NCBI GenBank assembly: GCA_017446045.1
Contig: JAFSRP010000054.1
Location: forward strand, 30,852 to 94,851
Source of the DNA: Lachnospiraceae bacterium
GTDB lineage: Bacteria > Bacillota > Clostridia > Lachnospirales > Lachnospiraceae
DNA length: 64,000 nucleotides
Reading direction: 5' to 3'
In this document: positions 7,015 through 53,152 of the stretch, in pieces
Layout: every line of letters starts with the position of its first letter
How positions within the stretch are numbered: the stretch's first letter is position 1
Program-made: the position numbers and the translations under genes
The notes under the pieces: generated by a model
What the model was told of the DNA's origin: nothing
The model's database searches: none
Seen by the model: the letters and a program-made list of their open reading frames with translations, nothing else

Positions 7015-8502
7015 TTACGTTATCAGGTCCTCTGCCACTGCAGAAAGCTTCATGGAATTCGATCCTTTAAAAAGTACGGCGTCGCCTGCCTTCAGATGCT
7101 GCCGGAGATCCTCCTGCAGGGCACCGCGGTCAGTATAATGTCTGATAAGGCAGGTCTTTTCCCCCGGATCCGCAGCATTTTCGATCCCTTCCCCGATATG
7201 ACGGGCAAGATTTCCGTACAGCCAGACTTCATCCAAGTGCCTCAGCTCCCGCGCGATGGTCTCGCCGACTTCCCTGTGATAGCGTGCCTCTTCCGGCCCA
7301 AGCTCCAGCATGTCCGCAAGCACCGCAATGTGCCGGCCGGACGCCGGCATCGCGTCAAGTACTCTGAGACCGGCAGTCATGGACTGCGGCGCCGCGTTGT
7401 ATGCATCATTGATCACTTTGATGCCATTTTTCTCTGTGATCCGGCCGCGGCCGCTCAGGCTTTCAAATCCCTGCAGACCCCGTATTGCCGACCGCGGATC
7501 TACACCGTTCAGCACAGCCGCGGCAAAAGCTGCCAGTGAATTCAGCACCATATGCATTCCCGGCACCGAAAGCCGCATCAGATAAACAGCATTTCCTCCG
7601 TCCGTAGTATCCGAATCAGCATCTTTGCCGTCTGTCCCGGGACTAAGCAGGTCCCCGGCGACCACGAGGTCGAATACCGGACAGCCATCCTCCTCACGGA
7701 TATTTTCCGCCCGGATGGCAGCATTTTCACCGGTCCCGTAAAAGAGAATACGGATATTCCGGTCACAGGCGATGCCCCAGCCGTGAAGGCGGTCCGGGGT
7801 GATCTCCCGCAGCAGAGGATCGTCCCCGTTCAGGAGCAGTATGCCGCCGTCCTTCATGCCGTCGAGGATATGAAGCTTTTCCTTCATGATATTTTCCTGG
7901 CTTCCCAGGTTGGCGATGTGGCTGATGCCGATCACTGTCACGACCGCCATATCGCACTGCACGACACGGGAGATACGGTGCATTTCCCCAAATTCGGAAA
8001 TGCCCATCTCGATCACGCCGATCTTTGCGTCCGGATCCGTCTCTGTCACGGTAATGGGAACGCCGCTCTGGGAGTTGGCATTACCTTTGGTACTGTATGT
8101 CCTTAAGCCTTCCGAAAGGGCAGCGGCGATCATTTCACGTGTGGTAGTCTTGCCAACGGATCCGGTCACGCCAATGTAGGGAATGCGGACATACCGGCTG
8201 CGATAATACGCGCCGAGATCCTGCAGTGCCTGCATGGTATCTTCCACGCCGATCACCGGCCATCCTGACGCTGCAGCCTGCTCCGGCAGGCCTTCCGATG
8301 AGAGCGTCGCCGCCGCGCCATGGGCAAAAGCGTCTCCGATAAAGCGGTGCGCGTCCACCCTTGCGCCGATGATGGGGACGAAAAGATCCGCGCCCTTCAT
8401 GGTGCCGGACGCGGTGGATATATTTTCGATCATGGTATCCGCACTGCCGCAAAGAAGCTTTCCTTTTACGGCAGCTGCGATCTCCGCTGCTGTTAAACGC
8501 AT
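7015..8502 (-). CDS. murF: UDP-N-acetylmuramoyl-tripeptide--D-alanyl-D-alanine ligase
   Basis: Mur ligase P-loop GVTGSVGKTTT, the NDAYNA motif, and position downstream of murE. Confidence 0.9.
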   Translation of the reverse strand: MRLTAAEIAAAVKGKLLCGSADTMIENISTASGTMKGADLFVPIIGARVDAHRFIGDAFAHGAAATLSSEGLPEQAAASGWPVIGVEDTMQALQDLGAYYRSRYVRIPYIGVTGSVGKTTTREMIAAALSEGLRTYSTKGNANSQSGVPITVTETDPDAKIGVIEMGISEFGEMHRISRVVQCDMAVVTVIGISHIANLGSQENIMKEKLHILDGMKDGGILLLNGDDPLLREITPDRLHGWGIACDRNIRILFYGTGENAAIRAENIREEDGCPVFDLVVAGDLLSPGTDGKDADSDTTDGGNAVYLMRLSVPGMHMVLNSLAAFAAAVLNGVDPRSAIRGLQGFESLSGRGRITEKNGIKVINDAYNAAPQSMTAGLRVLDAMPASGRHIAVLADMLELGPEEARYHREVGETIARELRHLDEVWLYGNLARHIGEGIENAADPGEKTCLIRHYTDRGALQEDLRQHLKAGDAVLFKGSNSMKLSAVAEDLIT

Positions 8503-24746: not shown

Positions 24747-26018
24747 CTATTCTCTCACCATGACAGCGACACCGTCCGGTATCGCTGTGATCGTGGCATT
24801 CTTCCCCATGATCTTTTCCGCTGTCTCCATGGCTTCCTCCAGCGAATGCGCCGGGATCATATGCAGGCCTTTCACGATCTCATCCGACGCCTCCGATACA
24901 TAGATCACCGATGCTTTCCTGAGGACCCTGATGAAGATCTGCGTCTGCCACTGATCCGGCACAGTTTCGTCCCTTCCCCTCGAAAGGAAAAGGGCCATGG
25001 TCTTTTCGATATCTGGCTCATCTGCCAGCTGATGATAGAAATGGTCTCCGCCATGACCATCGTTGCTTCTCGCCAGCATAATGATCACTCCGCCGGGTCT
25101 TACTGTGGCTTCTGCAGCAGTCATACCCTTGACAGCCTGATAGATATTCTGGTCGAGCGGGTATCCGCCATTTGTTGTAATAACGATATCTGCCGGCTTC
25201 GCATCCACACGGCAGAGAGATGACAGAAAGTCGCAGCCGACCTTGTGAGCCGCTTCCATATCGCCGGCTACAGCGAAGATCGCCTCCTTGTCGGCATTGA
25301 TGACGACGTTGCAGATAAAGGCAAGCTTCACCTGTCTGGCTGCCCATACCATGTCTTTATGGATCGGGTTGCCCTCGAGGATACCGGTCCTCGCATGTTT
25401 ATCCGCTATGAACTCGGAACAATGGTTCGCGAGTACGGTCGTTCTTGACGCGATCCCCGGGAGGATGGATTTCCTCGCGCCGGAAAAGCCCGCAAAGAAA
25501 TGCGGCTCGATGAATCCTTCCGAGCAGACCAGATCGGCATCGGCCACCAGTTTATTGATGATAAGGTCTCCGCCGCCAGGGAGCGTTCCGATGCGGACAA
25601 GCGGGGAATTATCGCAGTCATGGACAACGATCTTCTCCTGCTCCACGATCTCACGTCCGAACTTATTTACAAGTTCCTCTTTTATTGTACCCCTGTGACA
25701 GCCCGTACTGATAAGGATCGTTATATCCGCGTCCGGATTTCCCTTCCGTATCTCCCTGAGCATCGGAGGAACGATCACCTTGCTGGGAACAGGTCTCGTA
25801 TGATCAGACGCGATCAGGACGATATTCTTTTTCCCTTTCGCGAGCTCCGAAAGCCCGGGGCTTCCGACCGGATCCGCAAGCGCTTCCTCCACAAGGAAAA
25901 GCGGTTCCTTCTTTGCCCTGTAATGATGGAGTTTTGAGACCAGGACGCCCTGCAGACGCGCATCGTCCGCATCATAGTTCACAAACTCTTTTCCATATGG
26001 GAATACGATCCGCATCAT
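24747..26018 (-). CDS. LarA-family nickel-pincer-dependent 2-hydroxyacid racemase/epimerase homologue (DUF2088)
   Basis: About 423 aa. Motifs SDHTRP, TGCHRG and EPHFFAGFSGARKSILPG...ANH correspond, from memory, to the LarA catalytic His pair, the cofactor-tethering Lys and the Ni-binding His. A GGAGG precedes the tandem ATG ATG start. Confidence 0.8.
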   Translation of the reverse strand: MMRIVFPYGKEFVNYDADDARLQGVLVSKLHHYRAKKEPLFLVEEALADPVGSPGLSELAKGKKNIVLIASDHTRPVPSKVIVPPMLREIRKGNPDADITILISTGCHRGTIKEELVNKFGREIVEQEKIVVHDCDNSPLVRIGTLPGGGDLIINKLVADADLVCSEGFIEPHFFAGFSGARKSILPGIASRTTVLANHCSEFIADKHARTGILEGNPIHKDMVWAARQVKLAFICNVVINADKEAIFAVAGDMEAAHKVGCDFLSSLCRVDAKPADIVITTNGGYPLDQNIYQAVKGMTAAEATVRPGGVIIMLARSNDGHGGDHFYHQLADEPDIEKTMALFLSRGRDETVPDQWQTQIFIRVLRKASVIYVSEASDEIVKGLHMIPAHSLEEAMETAEKIMGKNATITAIPDGVAVMVRE

Positions 26019-26091
26019 AACCTCCTTGCATATCTTCCGAAATGCAGGTCAGCTGTCCTTTACAGCCTAGTATACCATAAATTGGCATACA

Positions 26092-26133
26092 TACAAGAAA
26101 GGCCGCTGTCATTTTCGATGCAGGACAGCAGCC
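26092..26133 (-). terminator. intrinsic terminator after the glycerate kinase gene
   Basis: On the minus strand: GGCUGCUGUC-13 nt-GACAGCGGCC (10 bp, one G.U pair) followed by UUUCUUGU. It begins 7 nt after the stop codon. Confidence 0.7.
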
Positions 26134-26139
26134 TTCGTT

Positions 26140-27390
26140 TTAACTGTCAGCTTTATTGCGGCGCCGGATCAGCACCACGGAGATATCATTGACATTCGTG
26201 CCGGTCGCACCGGTCCTGATCAGTCCGCCGATCGCCTCCAGACCATGGTAAGTATCGTTATCCATCATGACATCAAAGGGGTCCAGGCCTTTTTCACGAA
26301 GCTTCCCCAAAGAATCTCCGTCCACATATCCTCCCGCCGCATCGCAGGGTCCGTCGGAACCGTCCGAACCTGCAGAGAAGATCACCGTATCCGATAATCC
26401 GGCGATCTTTTCTATGGCGCTGAAAGCGATCACCTGACTGCGGCCTCCGACACCATGTCCCTCCGGATTCAGATGGACAACGGTCTCTCCGCCGGAGATA
26501 AAGGCGATCGAATGATCGATGCCTTGCCAGGACCGCGCGATGGAAGAAAGAAAGCTTCCGGCTTCGGAGGCCTCGCAGTCCATGCAGTCCGTAAGAAAAC
26601 GCGTCTCATAGCCAAGCTCCTCGCAGGCATGAGCAGCAGCTTTGCAGAACTCCCTAACGGATCCTGTGATCACAGTCTCCACATTGTCCAGCGTCTTAGG
26701 AGTCTCATTTTTCATAAGCTCCACGCAGGCGGGCGGAAGTTCGATACCGAATCTTCGTATGGTCTCTGCTGCCTCCTCACAGGTCGAGCTGTCCGGATAC
26801 GCGGGACCGGACGCGATCATATCCAGCGGATCGCCGATAATATCCGAAAGCACGACGGCATAGACCTTTGCGGGAAGGCAATGCTGTGCGAAGCGTCCTC
26901 CCTTGACATTGGAAAGGCGCTTACGGATAATGTTCATGCTGACGATATCCGCGCCCTTGGCAAGAAGCTGCCGGGTGACATTCTGCAGATCCTCCGCGGA
27001 GCACTTCGGGTTTTCAAACAGAGTGCTTCCGCCGCCGGACAGCAAAAAGAGCACCGTGTCATCCGCAGACAGGTCGGCGGTCAATTCGAGCGCTTCTTTC
27101 GTAGAGGAAAAAGAGTCATCATCCGGGACCGGATGACCGGCTTCACGGATCTTCAGTGAGCCGATCGGACCCTGAGAGTAGCCATGCTTGGTGATCACGA
27201 TGCCATCGGAGATCCGGTCTCCGAGTACTTCATGGGCTGAGTGCGCCATGGACCAGGCTGCCTTTCCGACCGCGACCAGGATCAGCCTTCCGGAGGAAAA
27301 CTCCCGGTCCTTCAGCGCGCGTCGCACAGCCTCGTCCGGCAGCATCTGCCTGACCGCATAATCAACGATATAATCACAGTCTTTCCTCAT
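26140..27390 (-). CDS. glycerate 2-kinase / hydroxypyruvate-reductase-like protein (DUF4147 plus MOFRL domains)
   Basis: The length and sequence pattern (LVAVGKAAWSMA..., LLSGGGS, GGETVV, ...GTDGSDGP..., TGTNVND) are typical of the MOFRL/GckA family. The RBS reads AGGAGGAGAAAAC-ATG. Confidence 0.8.
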   Translation of the reverse strand: MRKDCDYIVDYAVRQMLPDEAVRRALKDREFSSGRLILVAVGKAAWSMAHSAHEVLGDRISDGIVITKHGYSQGPIGSLKIREAGHPVPDDDSFSSTKEALELTADLSADDTVLFLLSGGGSTLFENPKCSAEDLQNVTRQLLAKGADIVSMNIIRKRLSNVKGGRFAQHCLPAKVYAVVLSDIIGDPLDMIASGPAYPDSSTCEEAAETIRRFGIELPPACVELMKNETPKTLDNVETVITGSVREFCKAAAHACEELGYETRFLTDCMDCEASEAGSFLSSIARSWQGIDHSIAFISGGETVVHLNPEGHGVGGRSQVIAFSAIEKIAGLSDTVIFSAGSDGSDGPCDAAGGYVDGDSLGKLREKGLDPFDVMMDNDTYHGLEAIGGLIRTGATGTNVNDISVVLIRRRNKADS

Positions 27391-34592: not shown

Positions 34593-37500
34593 TTACTCTT
34601 CCATCTTTTTATATTTTTCGTAACGTTTCACCGCATCCTCGCTGCCGATCCTGAAGAGGCGTTCCGCGTTTTCCGGGAAGGTCTTCCGGAGGGAAGCATA
34701 ACGCGTCTCCCCATCGAGGAAGTCAGTGAATGCCATCGTCGGCGCCTTGGAGTCGACGTGCATCGGCTGTTCCTTCCGCGGATCATAATGATACAGGTTC
34801 CAGTAACCGCTCTGTACCGCGCGCTTCATTTCCTCCTGCACCTTGCTCATGCCGCCGCGGATGCCGTGGGAAACGCACGGACAGTACGCGATGACCACTG
34901 ACGGTCCTTCATAGCTTTCCGCTTCTTTCAGCACCCTGACCAGCTGGTTCATATCCGCACCCATAGCGACCTGGGCGACATAGACGTTGCCATAGGTCAT
35001 CATGATCGCTCCGAGATCCTTTTTACGGGACTTTTTTCCGGACGACGCAAACTGCGCCACCGCACCGATCGGTGTTGCTTTGGAGCTCTGGCCGCCGGTG
35101 TTGGAGTATACTTCCGTATCCACCACAAGAACGTTGATGTTCTCGCCCTGCGCGATCACATGGTCGAGGCCGCCGAAACCGATATCATACGCCCAGCCGT
35201 CGCCGCCGAACATCCAGAATGTCTTTTTGGCCAGCTGATCCTTGTATTTCAGGATCTCTGCCGCGAGATCGCGGACAGCGGCATCACAGCTTTCAGCCGC
35301 GGATAATGTCTCCACCAGCGCGTCTGTCGCACGGCGGGAGCCTTCAAAGTCGCTGTAATTATCCAGCCAGCTGCGGCAGGCATCCAGAAGTTCCGTCTCT
35401 CCTGTATTGTTCTCCAGTGTAGCCGCAAGACGCTCAATGCGCATCTTCTGCGCTTCACGCTGCTGCCGGACGGAAAGATACAGGCCCAGTTCCAGCTCCG
35501 CGTTATTTTCGAACAGGCTGTTGGTCCAGGCAGGACCGAAGCCTCGCTTGTTTGTGGTATAAGGGATTCCCGGCATCGGTGACCCCCATGCCTGGGAGCA
35601 GCCGGTACCGTTCGCCCAGTATACACGGTCTCCGAACAGCTGGGTCAGAAGCTTCGCGTAGGATGTTTCCGCACAGCCGGCACAGGCAGCGGAAAACTCC
35701 ACGAGGGGCTGACGGAACTGTGAGCCTTTGACTGTGTAGGGATCGAAGACATCGCCCTTATCCTTCAGGGAAAGCGCATAATTCCATCTCGTCTTCTGGC
35801 TCTCCTCGAGCTCAGCAGGCACCATGGTCAGCGCCTTGCTCTTCAGCGGACATACATTGGCACAGCTGCCGCATCCGGTACAGTCATAGGTCGAGATCTG
35901 CATGGAGAAGACATACTTCGGGCCGGATCCGTCCGCTTTCAGGCCTTTCAAAGGCGCAGATACAAAACCGGCAGGCGCGGATGCCGCCTCCTCTTCATCC
36001 AGAAGATACGGACGGATCGCCGCATGCGGACAGACATAAGCGCACTGATTGCACTGAATACACTGATCGGCATTCCACTGCGGGACATTGACCGCGATCC
36101 CCCGCTTCTCATAAGCGGTGAGACCCATGTCGATCACGCCGTCCTCGCGGCCCTTAAAGGCGCTGACCGGCAGATCGTCGCCCTTCTGGCGGTTGATTGG
36201 GATCAGGATATTTTTCACCACGTCCGGGACCGGCTGTGCCGATACTTTGGCATCATCCGGACAGGACGCCCACTCCGCCGGGATCGCGACCTCGGTCACT
36301 TCCTTTGCGCCGGCCTCAATGGCATCGACGTTCTGGCTGACGACCGCATCACCCTTCATGAAATAGGTCCTGCGTGCCGCTTCCTTCATGTTATTGAGCG
36401 CCTCTTCGACAGGCATCAGTCCGGAGACCCGGAAAAATGCCGCCTGCAGGACAGTATTGGTATGGCTCCCAAGGCCGAGCCGCTCGGCGATCGAAGTTGC
36501 GTTGATCACATAGAGGCGGATCTTCTTTTCCGCAAGCTGCCGTTTGACGTTTCCGGGCAGATTCTGCGACAGAGCGCTTCCGGGTGCCGTATCTGTCCCC
36601 CAGGTACAGTTCAGAAGCAGGCTTCCGCCGTTTTTCAGCTCATCCACGATATCATACTGCGCGATATAACCCTGATTGTGGCAGGCTACGAAATCCGCCG
36701 CCTTGACGTAGTAGGAACTGCGGATCGGCTTTTTGGAAAGACGCAGATGGGATTTGGTGACACCGAAGGATTTCTTGGCATCATACTCAAAGTAAGCCTG
36801 CGCATACATATCCGCGCAGTCTCCCAGGATCTGCACGGTATTGTGGTTAGCGCCCACAGTGCCGTCACCGCCGAGCCCCCAGAACTTGCAGCTGTAAATG
36901 TCAGCCACGGGATCCGCATCTCCGATTCCCTCCAGTTTCGGTACCGGAAGGCTGAGATGCGTTACATCATCATTGATACCGATGGTGAAGCTTCTCACCG
37001 GCGTATCGGAAGCAAGATTTTCGAAGACCGCCGCGATCTGTGCCGGATCCGTGTCCTTAGAACTAAGCCCGTAGCGTCCGCCGATGACCGTGACCGGTGC
37101 ATCCTGACGGCTTGCCCTTTCCTGTCGTTCCCACTCCGCGACAGCTGCCGCGACATCCAGGAACAGAGGCTCGCCAATGCTTCCCATTTCCTTGCAGCGG
37201 TCCAGTACAGCGATCCTGCGGACGGTCTTAGGAAGTGCGTCGATAAAATGCTTCACCGAGAACGGACGGTACAGATGGACCTGCAGGAAACCGGTATGAC
37301 CGCCGCGCGCATTGAGATACTCTACCGCTTCCTGCGCCGCGCCGGAAACGGAGCCCATGGCAACGACCACATCCGTTGCCGCCGGATCCCCATAATAATC
37401 AAAAAGATGATATGTCCGGCCGGTGATCTCACCCACCTTAAGCATATAGTCTTCAACGATATCCGGAAGTGCCGCGTAAAAGCCGTTGTTGGCCTCGCGC

Positions 37501-38183
37501 ACCTGGAAGTACACATCGCCATTCTGCACAGTCGCCCTGAGTTCCGGATGCTCCGGATTGAGCGCATGCGCGCGGAAACGGTCCAGCGCATCCCTGTCCA
37601 TCAGCTTCGAAAGCTCCTTTACGTCCGGCATATCGATGCGGCTGAGCTCATGGGAAGTACGGAAGCCGTCAAAGAAATGCATAAAGGGAATGCTGCCCTT
37701 CACGGCAGAAAGATGTGCCACTGCCGCCAGGTCTGCCGCTTCCTGCACACTGCCGGAAGAAAGCTGCGCGAATCCTGTCTGCCTGCACGCCATTACGTCG
37801 GAGTGATCACCGAAAATGCTCAGGGCATGCGTACCGACCGTACGGGATGCCACATGCAGTACCGCCGGAAGACGCTCGCCTGCGATCCGGTACAGCACCG
37901 GAATCATCAGCATCAGTCCCTGGCTCGAGGTATAGCTCGTTGCCAGCGCGCCGGCCTGCAGCGCGCCATGGACGGCACCGATGGCACCGGCTTCCGACTG
38001 CATTTCGATCAGACGCACGCGCTGTCCGAACATGTTTTCCCTGCCGTCGGCGCTCCATTTATCCGTTGCGCCTGCCATCGGGGAAGACGGCGTGATCGGA
38101 TAGATCGCCGCGATCTCGGTGAATTCGTAAGCAACATGAGCCGCAGCGCCGTTGCCGTCAACCGTCATATAATTTTTTCCCAT
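34593..38183 (-). CDS. nifJ: pyruvate:ferredoxin (flavodoxin) oxidoreductase, single-polypeptide PFOR
   Basis: 1196 aa. Two ferredoxin motifs, CIQCNQCAYVCP and CTGCGSCANVCP, and the TPP motif GGDGWAYDIG. Confidence 0.93.
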   Translation of the reverse strand: MGKNYMTVDGNGAAAHVAYEFTEIAAIYPITPSSPMAGATDKWSADGRENMFGQRVRLIEMQSEAGAIGAVHGALQAGALATSYTSSQGLMLMIPVLYRIAGERLPAVLHVASRTVGTHALSIFGDHSDVMACRQTGFAQLSSGSVQEAADLAAVAHLSAVKGSIPFMHFFDGFRTSHELSRIDMPDVKELSKLMDRDALDRFRAHALNPEHPELRATVQNGDVYFQVREANNGFYAALPDIVEDYMLKVGEITGRTYHLFDYYGDPAATDVVVAMGSVSGAAQEAVEYLNARGGHTGFLQVHLYRPFSVKHFIDALPKTVRRIAVLDRCKEMGSIGEPLFLDVAAAVAEWERQERASRQDAPVTVIGGRYGLSSKDTDPAQIAAVFENLASDTPVRSFTIGINDDVTHLSLPVPKLEGIGDADPVADIYSCKFWGLGGDGTVGANHNTVQILGDCADMYAQAYFEYDAKKSFGVTKSHLRLSKKPIRSSYYVKAADFVACHNQGYIAQYDIVDELKNGGSLLLNCTWGTDTAPGSALSQNLPGNVKRQLAEKKIRLYVINATSIAERLGLGSHTNTVLQAAFFRVSGLMPVEEALNNMKEAARRTYFMKGDAVVSQNVDAIEAGAKEVTEVAIPAEWASCPDDAKVSAQPVPDVVKNILIPINRQKGDDLPVSAFKGREDGVIDMGLTAYEKRGIAVNVPQWNADQCIQCNQCAYVCPHAAIRPYLLDEEEAASAPAGFVSAPLKGLKADGSGPKYVFSMQISTYDCTGCGSCANVCPLKSKALTMVPAELEESQKTRWNYALSLKDKGDVFDPYTVKGSQFRQPLVEFSAACAGCAETSYAKLLTQLFGDRVYWANGTGCSQAWGSPMPGIPYTTNKRGFGPAWTNSLFENNAELELGLYLSVRQQREAQKMRIERLAATLENNTGETELLDACRSWLDNYSDFEGSRRATDALVETLSAAESCDAAVRDLAAEILKYKDQLAKKTFWMFGGDGWAYDIGFGGLDHVIAQGENINVLVVDTEVYSNTGGQSSKATPIGAVAQFASSGKKSRKKDLGAIMMTYGNVYVAQVAMGADMNQLVRVLKEAESYEGPSVVIAYCPCVSHGIRGGMSKVQEEMKRAVQSGYWNLYHYDPRKEQPMHVDSKAPTMAFTDFLDGETRYASLRKTFPENAERLFRIGSEDAVKRYEKYKKMEE

Positions 38184-38199
38184 AGTATATCCTTTTCCT

Positions 38200-38226
38200 A
38201 AAAGGAGGGACGGGGTCCCTCCTTTT
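38200..38226 (-). terminator. hairpin between ilvE and nifJ (terminator or attenuator)
   Basis: Perfect 11-bp stem AAAAGGAGGGA / TCCCTCCTTTT with a 5-nt loop, 55 nt after the ilvE stop and 16 nt before the nifJ ATG. The U-run is part of the stem. Confidence 0.55.
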
Positions 38227-38280: not shown

Positions 38281-39351
38281 TCAGACGACCGGAACGATCC
38301 AGCCGAATCTGTCCTCAGCCTTGCCCCACTGGATGCTGGTGATCTCGTCATACAGATGCTGGGTGTACGGGCCGATCTTGCCGCCGTTGAACTCGTACTC
38401 CTTGCCTTCCGCATAGAGCCAGCCGACCGGGGAAACGACCGCCGCGGTACCGCAGCCCCATGCCTCCTCGAGCTTGCCGGCCTCGGCCGCGTCGATGATC
38501 TCCTGAAGGGTGATCTTGCGCTCCTCTACCGGAATGCCTTCGCTGCGTACGAGCTCCAGGATGCTCTTGCGGGTAATGCCGGGAAGGATGGAACCGTCGT
38601 CAAGTGCCGGAGTGATGACCTTGCCGTCGATCTTGAACATCATGTTCATGGAGCCGACTTCTTCAACGTACTTGCGCTCTACGCCATCCAGCCAGAGAAC
38701 CTGGGTGTATCCCTTTGCCTCTGCCAGCACGGATGCGCGCTGGGATGCCGCATAGTTGCCGCCGCACTTTGTATAGCCTGTGCCGCCTCTGACAGCGCGG
38801 ACATCGCTCTCCTCAACCATGATCCTGACCGGGTTGAGGCCTTCCGGATAATACATGCCCGAAGGCGCGAGGATGATCATGAAGACCGCATGACGAAGGG
38901 TGTGCAGGCCAACATTCGAATCATCGCCGAAAATGACCGGACGGATGTACAGGGAAGTGCCCTCGGTATGCGGTACCCAGTCCTTATCCAGGCTGACCAG
39001 CGCAAGGACAGCTTCTACGAAATCGTCAGGATCCACTTCCGGAACACCGATACGGTCCGCGGAATTCTTGAGACGGTTGGCGTTCTCATAGGGACGGAAC
39101 AGCTGGATCTTGCCCTCCGCGGTGCGATACGCCTTCAAGCCTTCGAATACCTCCAGCGCATAGTGCAGCGCGGTGCAGGCCGGGCTTAAAGAAAGCGGTC
39201 CGTAGGGAACAATGCGGGCATCATGCCAGCCTCTGTCAATGTCCCAGTCCATCAGGAACATATGGTCGGTAAATACCTTGCCAAATCCCAGTTTGGACTC
39301 GTCTGCCGGCTTCTCCTTCGGATTCGGATTCTTCGTGATCTTAATCTCCAT
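38281..39351 (-). CDS. ilvE: branched-chain amino acid aminotransferase (fold type IV)
   Basis: 356 aa. The sequence pattern (LHYALEVFEGLKAY, GTGYTKCGGNYA, EVGSMNMMF, ILPGITR, GTAAVVSPV) is typical of IlvE. Confidence 0.9.
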   Translation of the reverse strand: MEIKITKNPNPKEKPADESKLGFGKVFTDHMFLMDWDIDRGWHDARIVPYGPLSLSPACTALHYALEVFEGLKAYRTAEGKIQLFRPYENANRLKNSADRIGVPEVDPDDFVEAVLALVSLDKDWVPHTEGTSLYIRPVIFGDDSNVGLHTLRHAVFMIILAPSGMYYPEGLNPVRIMVEESDVRAVRGGTGYTKCGGNYAASQRASVLAEAKGYTQVLWLDGVERKYVEEVGSMNMMFKIDGKVITPALDDGSILPGITRKSILELVRSEGIPVEERKITLQEIIDAAEAGKLEEAWGCGTAAVVSPVGWLYAEGKEYEFNGGKIGPYTQHLYDEITSIQWGKAEDRFGWIVPVV

Positions 39352-39525: not shown

Positions 39526-42051
39526 TTACTTTCTGGCGATCCCCAACTCCTCACAGGCCGCTTCCCGCATCTTATATTTCAGGATCTTGCCAGCCGCGTT
39601 CATCGGGAAAGCATCGGTAAACCTAATATACTTCGGAACTTTGTGCCGCGCAAGTCTCGAAACCGTGAATTCCCGCATTTCCGGCTCGGTGAGCTTCGAC
39701 CCTTCCTTCAGGATGATGCAGGCCATGGCTTCCTCTCCGTAGCGTTCGTCCGGCACGCCGATGACGGCGGCATCCTGTACATCCGGATGGGTCAGCAGGA
39801 ATTCTTCGATCTCCTTGGGGTACATATACTCGCCGCCGCGGATGATCATATCCTTTAAACGTCCCGTGATCCGGTAGTTGCCGTCCTTATCCCGGCAGGC
39901 CAGGTCACCGGAGTGCAGCCAGCCTTCGTTGTCTACGGTATCACGGGTCTCCTCGGGCATCTTGTAGTAGCCCTTCATGGTGTTGTAACCCTTGGAGCAG
40001 AACTCACCGTTGACGCCATCGGGTACTTCCTCACCGGTCTCGGGATCGATGACCTTGCACTGGACGTGCGGGAAATCATAACCGACCGTCTCGGTACGAA
40101 GTTCCAGGCTGTCTGTCCATGCAGACATGGTAGATCCCGGAGAAGATTCTGTCTGGCCGTAGACCGAAACGATGCCCGTCATGTTCATCTCATCCGGCTG
40201 TGCCGCACGGCGCATCAGCTCCGGAGGACATCCCGCACCTGCCATGATGCCGGTCCGCATATGGGAGAAATCCGTTTTGCGGTAGTCTTCATGATTGAAC
40301 ATGGCAATGAACATCGTCGGTACGCCGTTGAAACAGGTGATGCGTTCCTGCCGGATGCATGCCAGAGAGGTCTTGGCAGAGAAATATGGCATCGGACACA
40401 TCGTTGCACCGTGTGTCATGGACGATGTCATGGAAAGCACCATGCCGAAGCAGTGGAACATCGGCACCTGGATCATCATACGGTCCGCGGTGGAAAGGCC
40501 CATACGGTCGCCGATACATTTGCCATTGTTGACAACATTATAATGCGTCAGCATGACGCCCTTGGGGAACCCCGTGGTACCGGAAGTGTACTGCATGTTG
40601 CAGACGTCGTCCGGCCGTACATGGGACGCCATCCGGTAGACCTCTTCTACCGGTACGGAATCCGCGCGGGCAAATGCCTCTTCAAAGGTGAGGCACCCCG
40701 GCATGCGGAATCCCGATGTAATAACGTTGCGCAGGAACGGCAGGCGCTTGCAGTGAAGCGGCTGTCCGGGCTTTGCTTTCGCGATCTCGGGACAGAGTTC
40801 ATTGATGATGTCACGGTAATTGGAATCCAGCGCACTCTCGATCATGACGAGCGTATGCGTATCCGACTGGCGCAGCAGGTATTCCGCCTCATGGATCTTA
40901 TACGCCGTATTGACCGTCACCAGAACCGCCCCGATCTTGGTGGTCGCCCAGAATGTGATATACCAGGCGGGTACATTGGTCGCCCAGATCGCCACCTTGG
41001 ATCCCGCCCTGACCCCCATGGAGATGAGCGCGCGGGCGAACGTATCTACATCCTCCCGGAACTCCTCGTAGGTCCTTGTATAATCAAGCGTCGTATACTT
41101 GAAGCAATACTGGTTCGGGAACTCTTCCACCATCCGGTCCAGGACCTCAGGGAAGGTCAGGTTGATCAGTTCATCCTTCTTCCAGACGTACTGTCCGGTT
41201 CCGTCGTGGTTCAGATACCGAGTACGCTTCTTGCCGCGTGTATCCTCATAGCGGTTCATATAGTTGACAAAGTAGGGGAAGATGATCTCCATATCCTGAA
41301 GATCTTCCATCCAGCTCCGCTTCCATTCCAGTGAGATATAACCGTCGAAATCGATGGAGCTCAGCGCCCGCATGATCCCGTCGATGGGCATGTTGCCCTC
41401 ACCGATCAGGTTGTAGGTGTCCCTGTCGTCGGAATCCCGCATGTGGACGTGACGTACGTACGCGCCCAGGTTGCGGATCGTATCCGCCGGCGACTCGCCT
41501 TTATCGCGATAGGGATGATGAACGTCCCAGAGCGCTGCCAGCTGGTCGCACGCATAATCGTCCATCAGCTCCCGGAGCCTTGCCGTGTCGGAATAAATGC
41601 CGCAGGTCTTCATCAGGATAGCGACCCCGGCTGTTTCCGCATAAGGCAGCAGCGCCTCCAGGTTTTCCCGGACCATGGCTTCATCGTCATATTCCGCCTT
41701 GACGGAAACGTAAGGAACGCCCATGTTGCGGGCAGCATCGATCTGGTCTTTGAGCATCCGGATATAGCTTTCCCGGTCCGAAGCATTGGGGGCGGCATTA
41801 CCGACACCGCCGTCCTGCATGCTGATATCGATCGAAGTGTCAAAGACCGGGATCTCGAGTTTCTTTTCCCTTAAACCTCTCGCTGTTGCCTGTGTATTGT
41901 ATCTGTGGAAGGGGCCGCCGCGCTGGATCAGTTCCGGTGTCTGGTGAAGATTATATACCTCGATTCCCTGAAAATGCATATCGACCGCGATCTCCTGCAT
42001 TTCCTCCCAGCTGATCTCCGTCCAGCCGCGTGTTGAAAACGAAAGCTTCAT
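39526..42051 (-). CDS. fusion protein: N-terminal xylose-isomerase-like TIM barrel (sugar-phosphate isomerase/epimerase family, about aa 1-275) plus C-terminal AMP-forming acyl-CoA synthetase/ligase (ANL superfamily, about aa 300-841)
   Basis: The N-domain has the AP_endonuc_2-like pattern (WDVHHP, HVHMRDS, YISLEW). The C-domain has ANL motifs YTSGTTGFPKGV, GYYKMPEET, WLHSGD, GRLKDMIIRGGE and PMNAAGKILK. It is a single uninterrupted ORF starting 11 nt after the upstream gene's stop. Confidence 0.8.
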   Translation of the reverse strand: MKLSFSTRGWTEISWEEMQEIAVDMHFQGIEVYNLHQTPELIQRGGPFHRYNTQATARGLREKKLEIPVFDTSIDISMQDGGVGNAAPNASDRESYIRMLKDQIDAARNMGVPYVSVKAEYDDEAMVRENLEALLPYAETAGVAILMKTCGIYSDTARLRELMDDYACDQLAALWDVHHPYRDKGESPADTIRNLGAYVRHVHMRDSDDRDTYNLIGEGNMPIDGIMRALSSIDFDGYISLEWKRSWMEDLQDMEIIFPYFVNYMNRYEDTRGKKRTRYLNHDGTGQYVWKKDELINLTFPEVLDRMVEEFPNQYCFKYTTLDYTRTYEEFREDVDTFARALISMGVRAGSKVAIWATNVPAWYITFWATTKIGAVLVTVNTAYKIHEAEYLLRQSDTHTLVMIESALDSNYRDIINELCPEIAKAKPGQPLHCKRLPFLRNVITSGFRMPGCLTFEEAFARADSVPVEEVYRMASHVRPDDVCNMQYTSGTTGFPKGVMLTHYNVVNNGKCIGDRMGLSTADRMMIQVPMFHCFGMVLSMTSSMTHGATMCPMPYFSAKTSLACIRQERITCFNGVPTMFIAMFNHEDYRKTDFSHMRTGIMAGAGCPPELMRRAAQPDEMNMTGIVSVYGQTESSPGSTMSAWTDSLELRTETVGYDFPHVQCKVIDPETGEEVPDGVNGEFCSKGYNTMKGYYKMPEETRDTVDNEGWLHSGDLACRDKDGNYRITGRLKDMIIRGGEYMYPKEIEEFLLTHPDVQDAAVIGVPDERYGEEAMACIILKEGSKLTEPEMREFTVSRLARHKVPKYIRFTDAFPMNAAGKILKYKMREAACEELGIARK

Positions 42052-42062
42052 AGTAGGTCAAA

Positions 42063-43478
42063 TCACTCCTGTTCCTCGTAGACGATCTTATTGAGCGCAT
42101 TCATATAGGCGCGGATGCTGGATCCGATAATGTCCGTGGAGATGCCGCGGCCGGAATAGACCTTGCCCTCATGCAGAAGCTTTACCACAGCCTCACCCAT
42201 GGCGTTGCGCCCTTCTGTCACCGTCTGGATCTGAAAATCGTCCAGCTCGTAATGCTGCCCGGTGATCTGTTCTATCGCGAGGAAAGCCGCGTCAATGGGA
42301 CCGTCGCCGAGGGCAACACTCTCCAGCGTCTGCTCTCCTTTCCGGATCTTCAGATGAGCCGTTGCGGTAAGAAGGTTTCCGGAATTGATGACATAGCTTT
42401 CCACTACAAATGTGGCAGGGACCTGCATGGCAGTAGAAGCGATGATAGTGTCGAGTTCGCGTGTGCCGATGCTGCCCTTCTTGGAAACGATGCGAAGGAA
42501 GGCATCATAGACCTTGGAACTGTCTTCTTCGGAAAGATCATAGCCCATCTTTGCGACTTCCTTCATCACGGCAGCCAGATCGTCATGTGCCGTAAGGGCC
42601 ACTCCGTCAGCGACATCCTGAACGCCGTTGTCAAAGGGGTTGGACTTGCTACGGCCGGTCTCGCACATCCAACGGATCTGATCCGTAATGCGCTTCATCT
42701 CCGTCGTGCCGGTCTTGCAGTACGCCTGGCAGAGATCGCTTTTGGCATTCAGTACCTTGACTGCCTTGGCAAGAGAAACGATGTTGACAGGATATGCCGC
42801 CGCTTTGACCTCACCTGCTCCGCGAATGACCGCAGCCACTGCGCATGCGTCTGCCATGGACAGTTCATCGGAACAGCTGACGCCGAGGGTGACATCCTGC
42901 AGAGCGGGAACATTGGCATAAATATGCTCCAGGAAGAGAGAAAATTCCTCCGGCAGCATGGTGCCTGCCGCATCACACACCGTAATGGTCTTTGCGCCCG
43001 CCTGGATCGCGGTGCGGATCGCTTCATACAGGAACTCCGGATCACTGCGGGTCGCATCGTCCGCGATAAATTCCACATCCTCCGTAAGCGCGGCGCAGGC
43101 GGAAACGGTGTCCTCAATGGCAGTCAGCATGTTGTGGGCTTTGAGATGATGGATATATTCCATCTGCGCCGGGCTGATGGCCGCGGGAACCTGCAGACGG
43201 GGATGACGGGCATCCTTCAGGGCCTTCCAGGTCACGCTTACGCTCTCCGGATCCAGTTTTACCGGAACAGCAAGGGAGCTGTTTTTGACAGAAGAGGCGA
43301 TGGATTTGATCCTGAGAGAATCGATCTTGCTCTGTTCGATCCCCTCGGCTTCGATCACTGCGACGCCGAGCCGGTCGAGGAGCTTCGCCATCTCCAGCTT
43401 TTCCTTAAAAGTCAGGGAAACTTCCTTTGTGTTCCCGGACTGTTTCATTGTCACATCACTGATACGAACTTCTCTCAT
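42063..43478 (-). CDS. 2-isopropylmalate synthase/homocitrate synthase-family paralogue with degenerate catalytic motifs and an intact LeuA-dimer (regulatory) domain
   Basis: Collinear similarity to LeuA: KEKLEMAKLLDRLGVAVIEA, EDVEFIADDATRSDPEFL, and C-terminal GDGPIDAAF...GRGISTDIIGSSIRAYMNALNK. However, DTTLRDGEQ is replaced by SDVTMKQSG, and HxHNDxG is replaced by SCSDELS. Confidence 0.75.
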   Translation of the reverse strand: MREVRISDVTMKQSGNTKEVSLTFKEKLEMAKLLDRLGVAVIEAEGIEQSKIDSLRIKSIASSVKNSSLAVPVKLDPESVSVTWKALKDARHPRLQVPAAISPAQMEYIHHLKAHNMLTAIEDTVSACAALTEDVEFIADDATRSDPEFLYEAIRTAIQAGAKTITVCDAAGTMLPEEFSLFLEHIYANVPALQDVTLGVSCSDELSMADACAVAAVIRGAGEVKAAAYPVNIVSLAKAVKVLNAKSDLCQAYCKTGTTEMKRITDQIRWMCETGRSKSNPFDNGVQDVADGVALTAHDDLAAVMKEVAKMGYDLSEEDSSKVYDAFLRIVSKKGSIGTRELDTIIASTAMQVPATFVVESYVINSGNLLTATAHLKIRKGEQTLESVALGDGPIDAAFLAIEQITGQHYELDDFQIQTVTEGRNAMGEAVVKLLHEGKVYSGRGISTDIIGSSIRAYMNALNKIVYEEQE

Positions 43479-43497
43479 AGTATTTCCTTTAAAAACG

Positions 43498-43621
43498 CAT
43501 CCCCTTCGCGCTTCGCGCTCGGCTCGCTCTTTTTTCCTTGTAGTTTTCGCTCCGCCTTCGGGCTGTGCTGCAACTATATGAAACTAGCGCATCCCCTTCG
43601 CGCTTCGCGCTCGGCTCGCTG
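43498..43621. repeat. two identical 32-bp GC-rich direct repeats, 92 bp apart, in the leader of the LeuA-like operon
   Basis: GCATCCCCTTCGCGCTTCGCGCTCGGCTCGCT occurs at 43498-43529 and again at 43590-43621. Each copy contains the tandem heptamer CTTCGCG x2. Copy 2 is bracketed by the 9-bp inverted repeat TATGAAACT / AGTTTCATA (43577-43585 / 43622-43630). Confidence 0.9.
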
Positions 43622-43627
43622 AGTTTC

Positions 43628-43666
43628 ATAATATAATAGGCTCCGTTCCTTTCCGGAAACGAAGCC
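43628..43666 (-). terminator. terminator-like hairpin inside the leader (possible attenuator)
   Basis: On the minus strand: GGCUUCGUUUC-CGGAAA-GGAACGGAGCC (11 bp including G.U pairs) followed by UAUUAUAUUAU. Confidence 0.45.
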
Positions 43667-43710
43667 TTGCTTTCATAACACCTGCAATATTAGTTCAGTA
43701 TCGTTTCCTT

Positions 43711-43795
43711 AACGGCATGAGTTATAAGAGTGTCCCAGCAGTAGGCCACCCAGCAGGAGGGAAACGAGTACTAAATTGCTGATCAAAATGCCGTT
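43711..43795 (-). ncRNA. candidate structured 5'-leader element (unclassified)
   Basis: An 8-bp closing helix AACGGCAU / AUGCCGUU encloses about 70 nt with a CAGCA/UGCUG helix and a CCUCC-UGCUG-GGUGG hairpin. It starts about 15 nt downstream of a good promoter. I recognised no riboswitch or T-box consensus. Confidence 0.3.
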
Positions 43796-43808
43796 CATAA
43801 TAGTGCTA

Positions 43809-43836
43809 ATTATAACCCGTTCTAAAAAAAAGTCAA
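43809..43836 (-). promoter_or_regulatory. sigma-A-type promoter for the LeuA-like operon leader
   Basis: On the minus strand: TTGACT, a 16-nt spacer, then TATAAT. Confidence 0.6.
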
Positions 43837-44745: not shown

Positions 44746-45621
44746 TCAAGCCTCACACCAGCGCAAATACCACCAGATACCGAAAATGATCACGGCGCTT
44801 CCAAGCAGTGCCAGCGGCGTGGGTATCTCACCGAAGAACAGCACAGCCAGCAGCGCGGAAAATACCGGCTCTGCAAGCTTGATCGTGCTGACGGTCGCGG
44901 CATTGAAATACTTGAGTCCCCAGCTGAAAATATTGTGCCCCAGAAGAGTGCTTACGACGGCCATGCCGAGCGTCGTAAGCCAGTTGACCGGCTCATATCC
45001 CAGTACAGGCGTACCGCTTGCCTTCAGCACCGTGAACGCCACGCATGCCGTGACCAGATAGATGATCCAGGTATACAGGGTCGTACTGATGTGCTGCCGG
45101 CAGATCCTGCCCATCATGGTGTAGCCTGCCATGGACACGGATGCCACGATCGCCAGAAGGTCCCCCTTCAGCATATGCGATCCCCCGCCGGCGTCATTGA
45201 CCGCCACCATGATGCATCCCGCAAAAGCAATGAAGATACCGATAATACTGCGCGGTGAGATCCGCTCCCCAAACATCAGATAGCCGGCGATCCCCGTAAA
45301 GAAGACCTCAGCATCAGTCAGTAGCACTGCCGACGCGACGCTGGTCGCCCGGACCGCGCTGAAATAACTGAAGAAATGCACTGCCAGAAAAATACCGCTG
45401 ACGATGCAGCAAAGCAGTACATGGCGGTCAAGTGTCTGCAGCTCTTCCCTGTGTTCTTTCTTCATCAGGGTCGGCACGGTCAGGAGCAGGGCGGTGATCG
45501 TCATGCGGTACAGCACAAGCACGGGCGCCGGTGCAGTTGAAAAACGGATAAAGATCGCTGCGAAGGAGATCCCCACAGTGCCGGATAATACGATCAGTTT
45601 TCGAATCGTTGTGTTATTCAT
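44746..45621 (-). CDS. EamA/DMT-family transporter
   Basis: About 10 hydrophobic helices in a two-fold repeat. The size and composition are typical of EamA proteins. Confidence 0.7.
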   Translation of the reverse strand: MNNTTIRKLIVLSGTVGISFAAIFIRFSTAPAPVLVLYRMTITALLLTVPTLMKKEHREELQTLDRHVLLCCIVSGIFLAVHFFSYFSAVRATSVASAVLLTDAEVFFTGIAGYLMFGERISPRSIIGIFIAFAGCIMVAVNDAGGGSHMLKGDLLAIVASVSMAGYTMMGRICRQHISTTLYTWIIYLVTACVAFTVLKASGTPVLGYEPVNWLTTLGMAVVSTLLGHNIFSWGLKYFNAATVSTIKLAEPVFSALLAVLFFGEIPTPLALLGSAVIIFGIWWYLRWCEA

Positions 45622-51353: not shown

Positions 51354-52520
51354 TCAATATCCGAATATAGCCGCAGCCTTTTTCATATTTTCAATAATAG
51401 ATACCGAGAAAGGACAGCGTGTCTCACAGCTGCCGCAGGATATACATTCCCCGGCATGATGCGGCAGGACCTTATAGTGCTCACGCACCGTCTCAGGGAT
51501 CGCCTCACGCGATTCTCCCGCGCCCTGTGCCTCCGCCAGATGAAGAAATCTGGTGACCTCGGCAACACTGATGCCCATCGGACAGGGCGCGCAATGACTG
51601 CAATACATGCAGTGCCCGCTCCAGCTGATCTTTGGCATGGCAGCAAGTGCCGGCGCATAGTCCCGTTCTTCATCCGAAGCATCCTCATAAGCTGCGGCCC
51701 GGCGGATATCATCCTCAGACCGCGCTCCCGCCATCACAGACGCGGCACCCGGCCGGCTCAATGCGTAGTGCAGACACTGATTCTCTGTCAGCGCCGCTTT
51801 CGCAGGAGAAAGCTCTGCATTCAACAGATCGCCGCCTCCGAATGCCTTCATTACCGTAATGCCCACGCCCTTTTTCTGACAAAGCTCATACAGAGCCTGC
51901 CGTTCGGGATCCATGTTCAGGAGCTTCTGCTCGTAGTTCTTTTCATTCCATAATTCTTCGACGTCTTCATTGGCCGGAAGAAGGTCATAGCAGGGATTGA
52001 TGCTGAACATCAGTACTTCGATGGCCCCTTCCTGTACAGCTTTCAGACCAACCTGCGGATTATGGCTGGAAAGCCCGACCGCGCGGATCACACCCCGGGC
52101 TTTCAATTCCTTTGCATACGCAAGGATACCGTTCTTTTTGACCTCTTCCCAATCCGAGAGTGAATCACAATAATGGATCATGCCGATATCCAGATAGTCT
52201 GTCCCGAGTCTCAGCAGCTGGTCCTCAAACGCAGCTTTCGTTTCTGCAAGATCCCGGGAACGCATATACTGCCCGTTTTTCCAGCAGGAGCAAAGATGAC
52301 CCTGCAGAATGAAGCGTTCACGCCTTCGCTTCAGGGCTTTTCCGAGATTTGTGCGAAAATCGGGATCCGGGGTGTACATATCAATGCAGTTGATCCCATA
52401 TTCTTCCAAAAGGTCAACAAACCGGCAGTATCCTTCCTCTGTCTGAAGCAGAAATCCTTCACAACCCATACCGATCTCACTTACTTTTATTCCCGTAGTA
52501 CCAAGTTCTCTGTATTTCAT
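51354..52520 (-). CDS. aldo/keto reductase with a C-terminal 4Fe-4S domain
   Basis: AKR N-terminus MKYRELGTTGIKVSEIGMG. The C-terminal Cys motifs are CMYCSHCAPCP and CISCGSCETRCP. Confidence 0.8.
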   Translation of the reverse strand: MKYRELGTTGIKVSEIGMGCEGFLLQTEEGYCRFVDLLEEYGINCIDMYTPDPDFRTNLGKALKRRRERFILQGHLCSCWKNGQYMRSRDLAETKAAFEDQLLRLGTDYLDIGMIHYCDSLSDWEEVKKNGILAYAKELKARGVIRAVGLSSHNPQVGLKAVQEGAIEVLMFSINPCYDLLPANEDVEELWNEKNYEQKLLNMDPERQALYELCQKKGVGITVMKAFGGGDLLNAELSPAKAALTENQCLHYALSRPGAASVMAGARSEDDIRRAAAYEDASDEERDYAPALAAMPKISWSGHCMYCSHCAPCPMGISVAEVTRFLHLAEAQGAGESREAIPETVREHYKVLPHHAGECISCGSCETRCPFSVSIIENMKKAAAIFGY

Positions 52521-52956: not shown

Positions 52957-52977
52957 TCATCTTTAAGAAAACAAACA

Positions 52978-53012
52978 GGGATCACTTCGTGCTCTCGCAC
53001 TCCCGTGATCCC
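52978..53012 (-). terminator. hairpin 2 downstream of groEL
   Basis: 8-bp stem GGGATCAC / GTGATCCC. On the minus strand it is followed by UGUUUGUUUUCUU. Confidence 0.55.
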
Positions 53013-53034
53013 TCCAAAACCCTATTCGCAAATC

Positions 53035-53066
53035 GAGCCCTCAGCTTTCGCTTCGGGCTCTTTTTT
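53035..53066. terminator. hairpin 1 downstream of groEL; its U-tract is on the plus-strand side
   Basis: 6-bp stem GAGCCC / GGGCTC followed by TTTTTT on the plus strand (53061-53066). It lies 87 nt past the groEL stop. Confidence 0.45.
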
Positions 53067-53152
53067 GCTCATATCGTTTTGACCGTCAGATGAATCCCTT
53101 CCGATATGAACAAGTTCATACCGTCACCGATCCATCTTCCTGTTTGTTTTCG

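Follow-up and report, generated by a model that had tools for sequence, protein, structure and literature searches.

The stretch of DNA analysed here, in the following called the window, comprises 64,000 nucleotides from a Lachnospiraceae bacterium (GCA_017446045.1, contig JAFSRP010000054.1, positions 30,852 to 94,851) and carries on its minus strand an operon that begins with two adjacent genes. The first encodes a catalytically degenerate paralogue of 2-isopropylmalate synthase (IPMS, LeuA), referred to as the dead IPMS, and the second a fusion of a xylose-isomerase-like TIM barrel with an acyl-CoA synthetase of the ANL type. An earlier interpretation made from the letters alone, the sequence-only reading, had placed this pair behind a long structured leader and directly upstream of ilvE and nifJ. 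The list of open reading frames (ORFs) agrees with it in the positions, the strand and the spacing of 11 nt between the two genes, which are in different reading frames. In the order of transcription the genes and domains are the following:

42063-43478, minus strand: catalytically degenerate IPMS (LeuA) paralogue, 471 aa (ORF list, Pfam)
39526-42051, minus strand: ORF of the TIM barrel::ANL fusion, 841 aa (ORF list, Pfam)
41257-42051, minus strand: N-terminal xylose-isomerase-like TIM barrel of the fusion, aa 1-265 (Pfam, AlphaFold2 model)
39526-41151, minus strand: ANL acyl-CoA synthetase domain of the fusion, aa 301-841, range including the stop codon (Pfam, motifs)
38281-39351, minus strand: ilvE, branched-chain amino acid aminotransferase (Pfam, NCBIfam NF009897)
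38200-38226, minus strand: GC-rich hairpin GGAGGGAC-CCC-GTCCCTCC followed by TTTT, between ilvE and nifJ (read from the sequence)
34593-38183, minus strand: nifJ-type single-chain 2-oxoacid:ferredoxin oxidoreductase (OFOR) of the PFOR family (TIGR02176)

The 471-aa protein is collinear with LeuA from end to end, as had been claimed. It contains the Pfam domains HMGL-like (PF00682, aa 4-226, 110 bits) and LeuA_dimer (PF08502, aa 340-465, 105 bits), both above the gathering score, and its AlphaFold2 model (pLDDT 79.9) is superimposed by Foldseek on the barrel of the Listeria LeuA (3EWB) with a TMt of 0.92 and a root mean square deviation of 2.0 Å. The model also matches the full-length LeuA of M. 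tuberculosis, including the Leu-bound form 3FIG. The architecture of an HMGL-like barrel and a LeuA_dimer domain is thus shared with LeuA (TIGR00973/NF002086; 3EWB, 3RMJ, 1SR9, 3FIG), but the dead IPMS is about 40-50 aa shorter than the LeuA models and is paired with a ligase instead of leuBCD. It also stays below the cut-offs of the LeuA equivalogs, with 295 against 532 bits for NF002086, the best match, and 276 against 599 bits for TIGR00973. The catalytic motifs were compared by a residue-level HMMER alignment to the solved IPMS structures 3EWB, 3RMJ and 6E1J, in which three LeuA motifs are substituted in register:

aa 8-16: DTTLRDGEQ of LeuA reads DVTMKQSGN
aa 167-171: PDTVG of LeuA reads CDAAG
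aa 201-207: HCH(D/N)DLG of LeuA reads SCSDELS

The substrate Arg and the metal-binding Asp/His/His are replaced by K12, Q13, S201 and S203. In the LeuA structures the Arg binds the 2-oxoacid, while the Asp and the two His coordinate the metal. The loss of essential residues stated by the sequence-only reading therefore holds in register; only its string for the first motif was off by one residue. Across 23 aligned family members the replaced motifs show little or no variation (ISDxTMKQ, CSDxLSMAD and CD[AT]AG), and 96 of the 227 barrel columns are invariant. Since the replaced residues themselves are invariant, the dead IPMS appears to be repurposed and not decaying. Its most conserved part is the LeuA regulatory domain, which is intact as had been supposed, with a mean pairwise identity of 77 % and a kept GDGPIDA motif. 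To judge from these substitutions, the 471-aa protein is dead for IPMS chemistry yet under strong purifying selection.

The second gene codes for a single protein of 841 aa in which Pfam recognizes AP_endonuc_2 (PF01261) at aa 21-246 (96 bits, cut-off 31), AMP-binding (PF00501) at aa 305-696 (299 bits) and AMP-binding_C (PF13193) at aa 747-822 (70 bits). All four profiles that had been suggested as a check (PF00682, PF08502, PF01261, PF00501) accordingly score above gathering. The ANL motif set, consisting of the P-loop TSGTTGxPKG, YGxTE, SGD, the hinge RxKD and the catalytic Lys, is intact and invariant in 18 fusion sequences (YTSGTTGFPKG, YGQTE, SGDL, GRLKDMIIRGGE and AAGK), which together with the Pfam matches bears out the description as a xylose-isomerase-like TIM barrel joined to a complete ANL synthetase. 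The AlphaFold2 model of the barrel, built with an alignment of truncated database proteins, has a pLDDT of 89.8. A Foldseek search with it gave generic family matches (probability 1.00, TM ~0.7, 13-20 % identity) and no functional assignment. The fold and the Asp, His and Glu ligands are shared with other xylose-isomerase-like barrels such as the D-tagatose/D-psicose 3-epimerases, MJ1311, Art22 and DgpB/C; the differences are the fusion to the ANL domain and a Lys in place of the first Glu. In a profile alignment to the D-tagatose 3-epimerase 8XIX and MJ1311 this first Glu, both metal-binding and catalytic, corresponds to the conserved Lys148, and Asp176, His201/203 and Glu242 are kept, so that three of the four metal ligands are present and the Glu-Asp-His-Glu tetrad of sugar epimerases and isomerases is incomplete. 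The barrel also carries an insertion of 14 residues, DGGVGNAAPNASDR (aa 80-93; 41773-41814, minus strand), which within the family is restricted to the clade of the window. The fusion is one ORF at every locus examined and in more than 120 protein clusters, whose identities are 65-91 %. It occurs in Lachnospiraceae, Oscillospiraceae, Roseburia and Holdemanella, under the database name 'AMP-binding protein'.

For the distribution of the family one genome per species was scanned. The dead IPMS is encoded in at least 371 species-level genomes, among them Lachnospiraceae, Oscillospiraceae, Faecousia, Roseburia and their relatives, and the orthologues are full-length with 55-92 % identity. The best 120 clusters of the protein search are all about 470 aa long and at least 64 % identical. 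In the databases the protein is named 'hypothetical protein' (NCBI) or, in one IMG entry, '2-isopropylmalate synthase'. The 80 best loci were kept for comparison, all of them belonging to gut or rumen Clostridia; individual loci are cited below by L numbers. The dead-IPMS gene is followed immediately by the fusion gene in all 83 informative loci, with a gap of -4 to about 40 nt, while two further loci are uninformative because the contigs end there. A reverse look-up from two fusion proteins again led to the dead IPMS upstream. The adjacency across Clostridia on which the sequence-only reading had made its proposal depend is therefore present throughout. Taken together, the dead IPMS would have the marks of a pseudoenzyme subunit, namely ancestral catalytic residues lost, a ligand-binding module kept and an obligatory genetic pairing with the ligase.

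Two TIM barrel::ANL fusions (L089:270-2792 and L090:161-2638) are only distantly related, with barrel identities of 33-38 %. The 160-270 nt available upstream of them are non-coding and promoter-like, and no dead IPMS and no T-box was found there. The existence of such fusions without the dead IPMS indicates that the fusion architecture is older than the partnership, and it is what would be expected for an accessory regulatory partner. At L090 the fusion gene is followed by genes for a 2-oxoacid_dh-type acyltransferase and a protein of the homoserine O-succinyltransferase family.

The structured leader noticed before is also real, as the gap of 431 nt upstream of the dead-IPMS gene holds a promoter, a leader ORF and a terminator. 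Its elements are:

43809-43836, minus strand: sigma-70-type promoter TTGACT-16 nt-TATAAT, 11/12 consensus matches
43709-43798, minus strand: Leu-rich leader peptide ORF MNGILISNLVLVSLLLGGLLLGHSYNSCR, 9 Leu codons, two LLL runs
43760-43767, minus strand: attenuator segment 1 TCGTTTCC, inside the leader ORF by the Leu codon runs; pairs with segment 2 in the minimum free energy fold
43701-43708, minus strand: attenuator segment 2 GGAAACGA, directly after the leader stop codon; complementary to segment 1 and to the 5' arm of the terminator
43628-43667, minus strand: intrinsic terminator (terminator scan), segments 3 and 4, with a 12-bp stem AGGCTTCGTTTCC-GGAAA-GGAACGGAGCCT (43638-43667) and a U-rich tail
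43588-43617 and 43496-43525, minus strand: GAGCCGAGCGCGAAGCGCGAAGGGGATGCG, a 30-nt sequence in two identical copies that follow the terminator and precede the dead-IPMS start codon

The leader was compared with those of seven relatives (L002, L006, L007, L008, L010, L013 and L047), all of which contain homologous Leu-rich ORFs with the pattern LL[ST]L[LR]LGGL[LR]LG. Six of the eight leaders have the same layout of promoter and leader ORF. Between the window and L006 the shared core of the leader ORF differs at three nucleotides, and all three changes are synonymous. Segment 2 is kept near the stop codon in six to seven of the eight, and all eight have the terminator stem, whose core is invariant and whose lower part shows compensatory changes. 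In the window the duplex of segments 2 and 3 has a folding energy of -12.9 kcal/mol and the terminator one of -18.2 kcal/mol; the corresponding values are about -10 to -13 kcal/mol for the 2:3 pairing in five of six leaders tested and -16 to -20 kcal/mol for the terminators. By these predicted pairings segment 2 can act as an anti-terminator, and the leader (43628-43836) has the layout of a classical leucine leader-peptide attenuator. It resembles the enterobacterial leu attenuator in its Leu-codon-rich ORF and its putative alternative 1:2, 2:3 and 3:4 pairings, but differs in that the leader ORF is almost leaderless, the -10 box ending 10 nt before its ATG. No Rfam match, and in particular no T-box (RF00230), was obtained for the window leader at the gathering or the E-value threshold. 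The two GC-rich copies of GAGCCGAGCGCGAAGCGCGAAGGGGATGCG, 92 nt apart, are the only two matches in the window, where none is expected by chance, and each contains a GCGC-GAA-GCGC mini-hairpin. In the relative L002 several features at L002:6990-7470 lie within the 1.1 kb upstream of the pair, namely a gene for a tRNA (7183-7254), a fourfold tandem array of GGGCTTTACTAAGT, and an AT-rich repeat, TTCAATTCATTTTTGCATCATATTATAT, which is about 30 nt long and occurs several times.

In other lineages a different device is found at the same place. In L001 and L005 the dead-IPMS gene is immediately preceded by a T-box (RF00230, 116-117 bits), and nine further lineages have one above the Rfam gathering score (L023, L024, L030, L041, L043, L044, L050, L060 and L081). 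The specifier codons were parsed by an anchored pattern and read Leu in 69 of 69 parsed T-boxes, as CUG (43), CUC (25) or CUA (1). The alternative registers over the same 69 T-boxes compare as follows:

Register 0: Leu 69
Register -1: Ser 66, Pro 2, Thr 1
Register +1: mixed, stop codons included

Register 0 was accepted because it is the only one that gives a single amino acid throughout. A Ser specifier was rejected, since three cases change the amino acid and the sister clade uses a Leu leader peptide. As far as the sequences tell, the T-box has been replaced on the same operon by a leader-peptide attenuator in the clade of the window (window 43628-43836 compared with L001:7710-7948). T-boxes and leader peptides turn genes on when the cognate tRNA is uncharged, and such an induction fits a role in leucine supply. 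That two unrelated leucine sensors occur on the same operon in sister clades is strong and independent evidence that the pair serves this purpose. Two incidental Rfam matches were also seen near the pair, a THF riboswitch upstream in L044 (4142-4239, plus strand) and a TwoAYGGAY RNA (107 bits) just downstream of the fusion gene on a Roseburia contig (L028:4831-4996, minus strand).

Downstream of the pair ilvE and nifJ follow on the same strand, as the sequence-only reading had it, and both products score above the NCBIfam cut-offs (453 against 307 bits for NF009897 and 1654 against 911 bits for TIGR02176). The fusion gene is separated from ilvE by 174 nt, in which the terminator scan predicts no terminator. 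The hairpin between ilvE and nifJ stays under the threshold of the same scan and ends about 17 nt 5' of the nifJ start codon; its function may be to stabilise the RNA or to terminate transcription in part. As a promoter has no room between this hairpin and nifJ, expression of nifJ probably depends on read-through.

The link to 2-oxoacid chemistry that had been drawn from these two neighbours proved to be real, as each of the 31 loci that extend at least 9 kb upstream and at least 3.5 kb downstream contains an OFOR. It is either of the nifJ type or of the Vor type, never both. In about 19 related loci from several families nifJ is located directly downstream of the pair, and IlvE is encoded inside or beside the operon in many loci. 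Most other loci possess, instead of nifJ, a divergent operon behind a T-box with an Ile specifier (AUC, parsed in 25 of them; 13 more read CCC-AUC-C). It was found at L071:258-9352 (minus strand), L001, L005, L014, L025, L037 and about 35 other loci. In L071 it encodes two paralogous ligases of the type helix-turn-helix (HTH)-cupin-ANL with MbcS as best NCBIfam match, a P-loop protein of 228 aa, an OFOR of the 2-oxoisovalerate type with delta, alpha (VorB, 552 bits, cut-off 399), beta and gamma subunits, and IlvE. By its gene content this operon looks like a complete set for the formation of isoleucine, perhaps also valine, from 2-methylbutyrate or isobutyrate, and the HTH-cupin N-termini of its ligases may be sensor modules in parallel to the dead IPMS. 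The ANL domain of the fusion is about 23-30 % identical to these MbcS-like ligases of the Ile arm. Candidate genes for all three steps of a pathway from branched-chain volatile fatty acids (BCVFA) to amino acids are co-localised, in the window as the fusion gene, ilvE and nifJ, and in relatives with a VorB-type OFOR and IlvE.

From this arrangement we propose, with confidence and doubt about evenly balanced, that the operon is a module induced by leucine starvation which forms leucine from a branched short-chain acid of external origin, taken to be isovalerate, and that the dead IPMS senses leucine as a regulatory subunit of the ligase. In the first step isovalerate, or an acid closely resembling it, would be joined to CoA by the ANL domain. 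The resulting thioester would be reductively carboxylated to 2-oxoisocaproate by a ferredoxin-dependent OFOR (nifJ-type here, VorB-type in other lineages), and IlvE would transaminate the latter to leucine. The dead IPMS would bind the ligase, possibly via the N-terminal TIM barrel of the fusion, and impose leucine feedback on the committed step, transcription being gated by leucine through the putative attenuator in the clade of the window and through the Leu T-box in most other lineages. The substrate of the ligase, the direction of the OFOR, the physical association of the two proteins and the binding of leucine by the dead IPMS are all points that we infer.

A branched short-chain carboxylate as substrate, most simply isovalerate, is suggested by the OFOR and IlvE neighbours and by the MbcS-like Ile arm. 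Nothing points to the keto or hydroxy acids that the sequence-only reading had favoured; its idea of a ligand-sensing subunit fares better, as it fits the leucine-specific control at the RNA level and the distant fusions without a dead IPMS. In rumen organisms leucine is formed from isovalerate by carboxylation and subsequent amination, and isoleucine from 2-methylbutyrate (PMC7356843, PMC2812497). MbcS prefers alpha-branched acids, accepting 2-methylbutyrate and isobutyrate but scarcely isovalerate (PMC10026030); this would account for the Leu arm having a ligase of its own. Because the dead IPMS keeps the feedback domain of LeuA, is co-translated with the ligase and is dispensable in the distant fusions, a leucine-sensing subunit is the most economical assignment. 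More tentatively, we suggest that the LeuA-derived pseudoenzyme is an allosteric subunit which makes the TIM barrel::ANL ligase the committed, feedback-regulated entry to a route from isovalerate to leucine that would be widespread among gut and rumen Clostridia. With the same reserve, the LeuA regulatory domain would have outlived the catalysis of its own protein and moved onto a salvage route. In a stronger version of the allosteric proposal, the two remodelled barrels would jointly make up a new, composite active site.

Several observations weigh against the proposed module. The best NCBIfam match of the ANL domain, NF009233, reaches 658 bits and stays below its cut-off of 832, and by this score the ligase is from a poorly characterised, NF009233-like ANL clade. 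The barrel of the fusion, with three of four metal ligands and no explained role, might itself be catalytic. A shift of the specifier by one register would yield the near-uniform Ser reading listed above (66/69). Concerning the later steps, the OFOR of the window scores as a pyruvate:ferredoxin oxidoreductase (PFOR) equivalog and may simply be the housekeeping PFOR, and its gene is set apart from ilvE by the hairpin; an enzyme annotated for branched 2-oxoacids is found only in the Vor-type loci, and there OFOR and IlvE are under the Ile T-box and not the Leu T-box. Finally, at L012, with slightly shorter flanks, the pair stands alone, with no OFOR within about 8 kb and no IlvE.

Other explanations have to be considered. 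The ligase chemistry could be the same, with the dead IPMS acting as a structural, stabilising or substrate-channelling partner or as a bridge to the OFOR, so that leucine would control the operon at the RNA level only. The strict pairing and the invariant remodelled barrel show a conserved function but not which one, and leucine control is indeed already present at the RNA level. We regard this explanation as unlikely, though one to be taken seriously, since no part of the dead IPMS is more conserved than the LeuA regulatory domain, which retains GDGPIDA. The only role of this domain in LeuA and CimA known to us is effector binding and dimerisation.

Two further explanations are both rather improbable. 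According to one of them the isovaleryl-CoA made by the pair would chiefly prime the synthesis of iso-odd branched-chain fatty acids at times when leucine, from which this primer usually derives, is scarce. A precedent exists in Staphylococcus aureus, where MbcS is a ligase scavenging branched acids for lipid synthesis (PMC10026030, PMC11167679), a Leu T-box would report a shortage of a leucine-derived primer as well, and in L012 neither an OFOR nor IlvE accompanies the pair. However, the OFOR of all full-flank loci and the frequent IlvE are needed for the amino acid and not for the primer, and a kept LeuA feedback domain fits amino-acid biosynthesis. According to the other, one or both remodelled barrels are catalytic and perform with the ligase a new reaction of leucine supply, for instance on the acyl-adenylate or thioester or in converting another precursor, the 471-aa protein being a neo-enzyme instead of a pseudoenzyme. 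Potentially reactive residues are indeed among its invariant replaced positions (Cys168, Cys202, Asp8, Lys12 and Asp140/141), and the barrel of the fusion retains Asp176, His201/203 and Glu242 besides the Lys for the first Glu and is without a close structural analogue. This is opposed by the fact that the substrate Arg of the Claisen-condensing family and all three of its metal ligands are gone, by the distant fusions, which work without the dead IPMS, and by the lack of any additional substrate-related genes conserved near the pair.

A catabolic direction, from leucine via 2-oxoisocaproate (IlvE) and isovaleryl-CoA (OFOR) to isovalerate with the ANL ligase reversed, is very improbable. The same enzymes could run oxidatively, as PFOR-type enzymes usually do, but T-box and leader peptide induce on lack of leucine, the opposite of what catabolism would need, and ANL ligases are effectively irreversible in most cells. 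That the 471-aa ORF is a decaying leuA pseudogene, for which only the loss of the canonical catalytic residues would speak, or that the 841-aa ORF is an artefact of assembly or a frameshift, is refuted by the full-length orthologues in at least 371 genomes, the invariance of the substitutions and the single fusion ORF in more than 120 clusters.

Some further elements of the window were recorded in addition. A Clostridiales-1 RNA (RF01699, 81 bits) at 52970-53148 (minus strand) lies about 450 nt upstream of a gene for an aldo/keto-reductase fused to a 4Fe-4S domain (AKR-Fer4; 51354-52520, minus strand). In L005 a homologous AKR-Fer4 gene and a gene for an EamA transporter are located directly downstream of the pair (L005:12018-14089), and the window has an EamA gene at 44746-45621; this may reflect loose synteny or a functional link. 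Unrelated to the pair is a lactate-racemase (LarA) homologue next to a DUF4147/MOFRL (glycerate-kinase-like) gene at 24747-27390 (minus strand).

Among the known systems HisZ is the closest in concept. It is a catalytically inactive paralogue of the histidyl-tRNA synthetase and serves as regulatory subunit of the short-form ATP phosphoribosyltransferase, on which it confers feedback by the end product (PMC9734150). By analogy, the dead IPMS would likewise be a dead paralogue from the same amino-acid system that stands beside the enzyme of the first step; the protein families are unrelated, and for the dead IPMS complex formation and leucine feedback are only presumed. MbcS, the methylbutyryl-CoA synthetase of S. 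aureus, is an ANL ligase that scavenges external branched short-chain acids as CoA thioesters, as is proposed for the fusion, but it belongs to a different clade and has neither a TIM barrel nor a partner protein. The gene content of the locus and its control by Leu and Ile match the three steps of the reductive carboxylation of BCVFA by the 2-oxoisovalerate oxidoreductase (VOR) (PMC7356843, PMC2812497), whereas the dead-IPMS partner and the TIM barrel::ANL fusion are absent from any described version of it. A literature search on IPMS pseudoenzymes or inactive paralogues, on reductive carboxylation by OFOR and on T-boxes with VOR gave no description of the pair, and no paper was found in the literature searched that assigns the activation step for branched acids to genes of Clostridia. 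The claim of an undescribed system is therefore to be narrowed: the pathway from isovalerate to leucine is old physiology, but the assignment of genes and the dead-enzyme partner are new. The parts are of known kinds, namely an ANL ligase, a pseudoenzyme, a T-box and an attenuator, and it is their combination and the family that are undescribed.

That branched-chain volatile fatty acids serve rumen and gut anaerobes as growth factors and as precursors of amino acids has been known since the 1960s, and these acids are used as feed additives. The module would provide a concrete set of genes, and with it a marker by which gut bacteria able to turn isovalerate into leucine could be predicted. Regulatory turnover is cleanly exemplified in nature by this operon, on which an attenuator has taken the place of a T-box. 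If the dead IPMS senses leucine, a systematic misannotation would be corrected, as the name '2-isopropylmalate synthase' in IMG can falsely imply an intact leucine pathway, and the family would represent a new and very widespread case of an allosteric takeover by a pseudoenzyme, comparable to HisZ.

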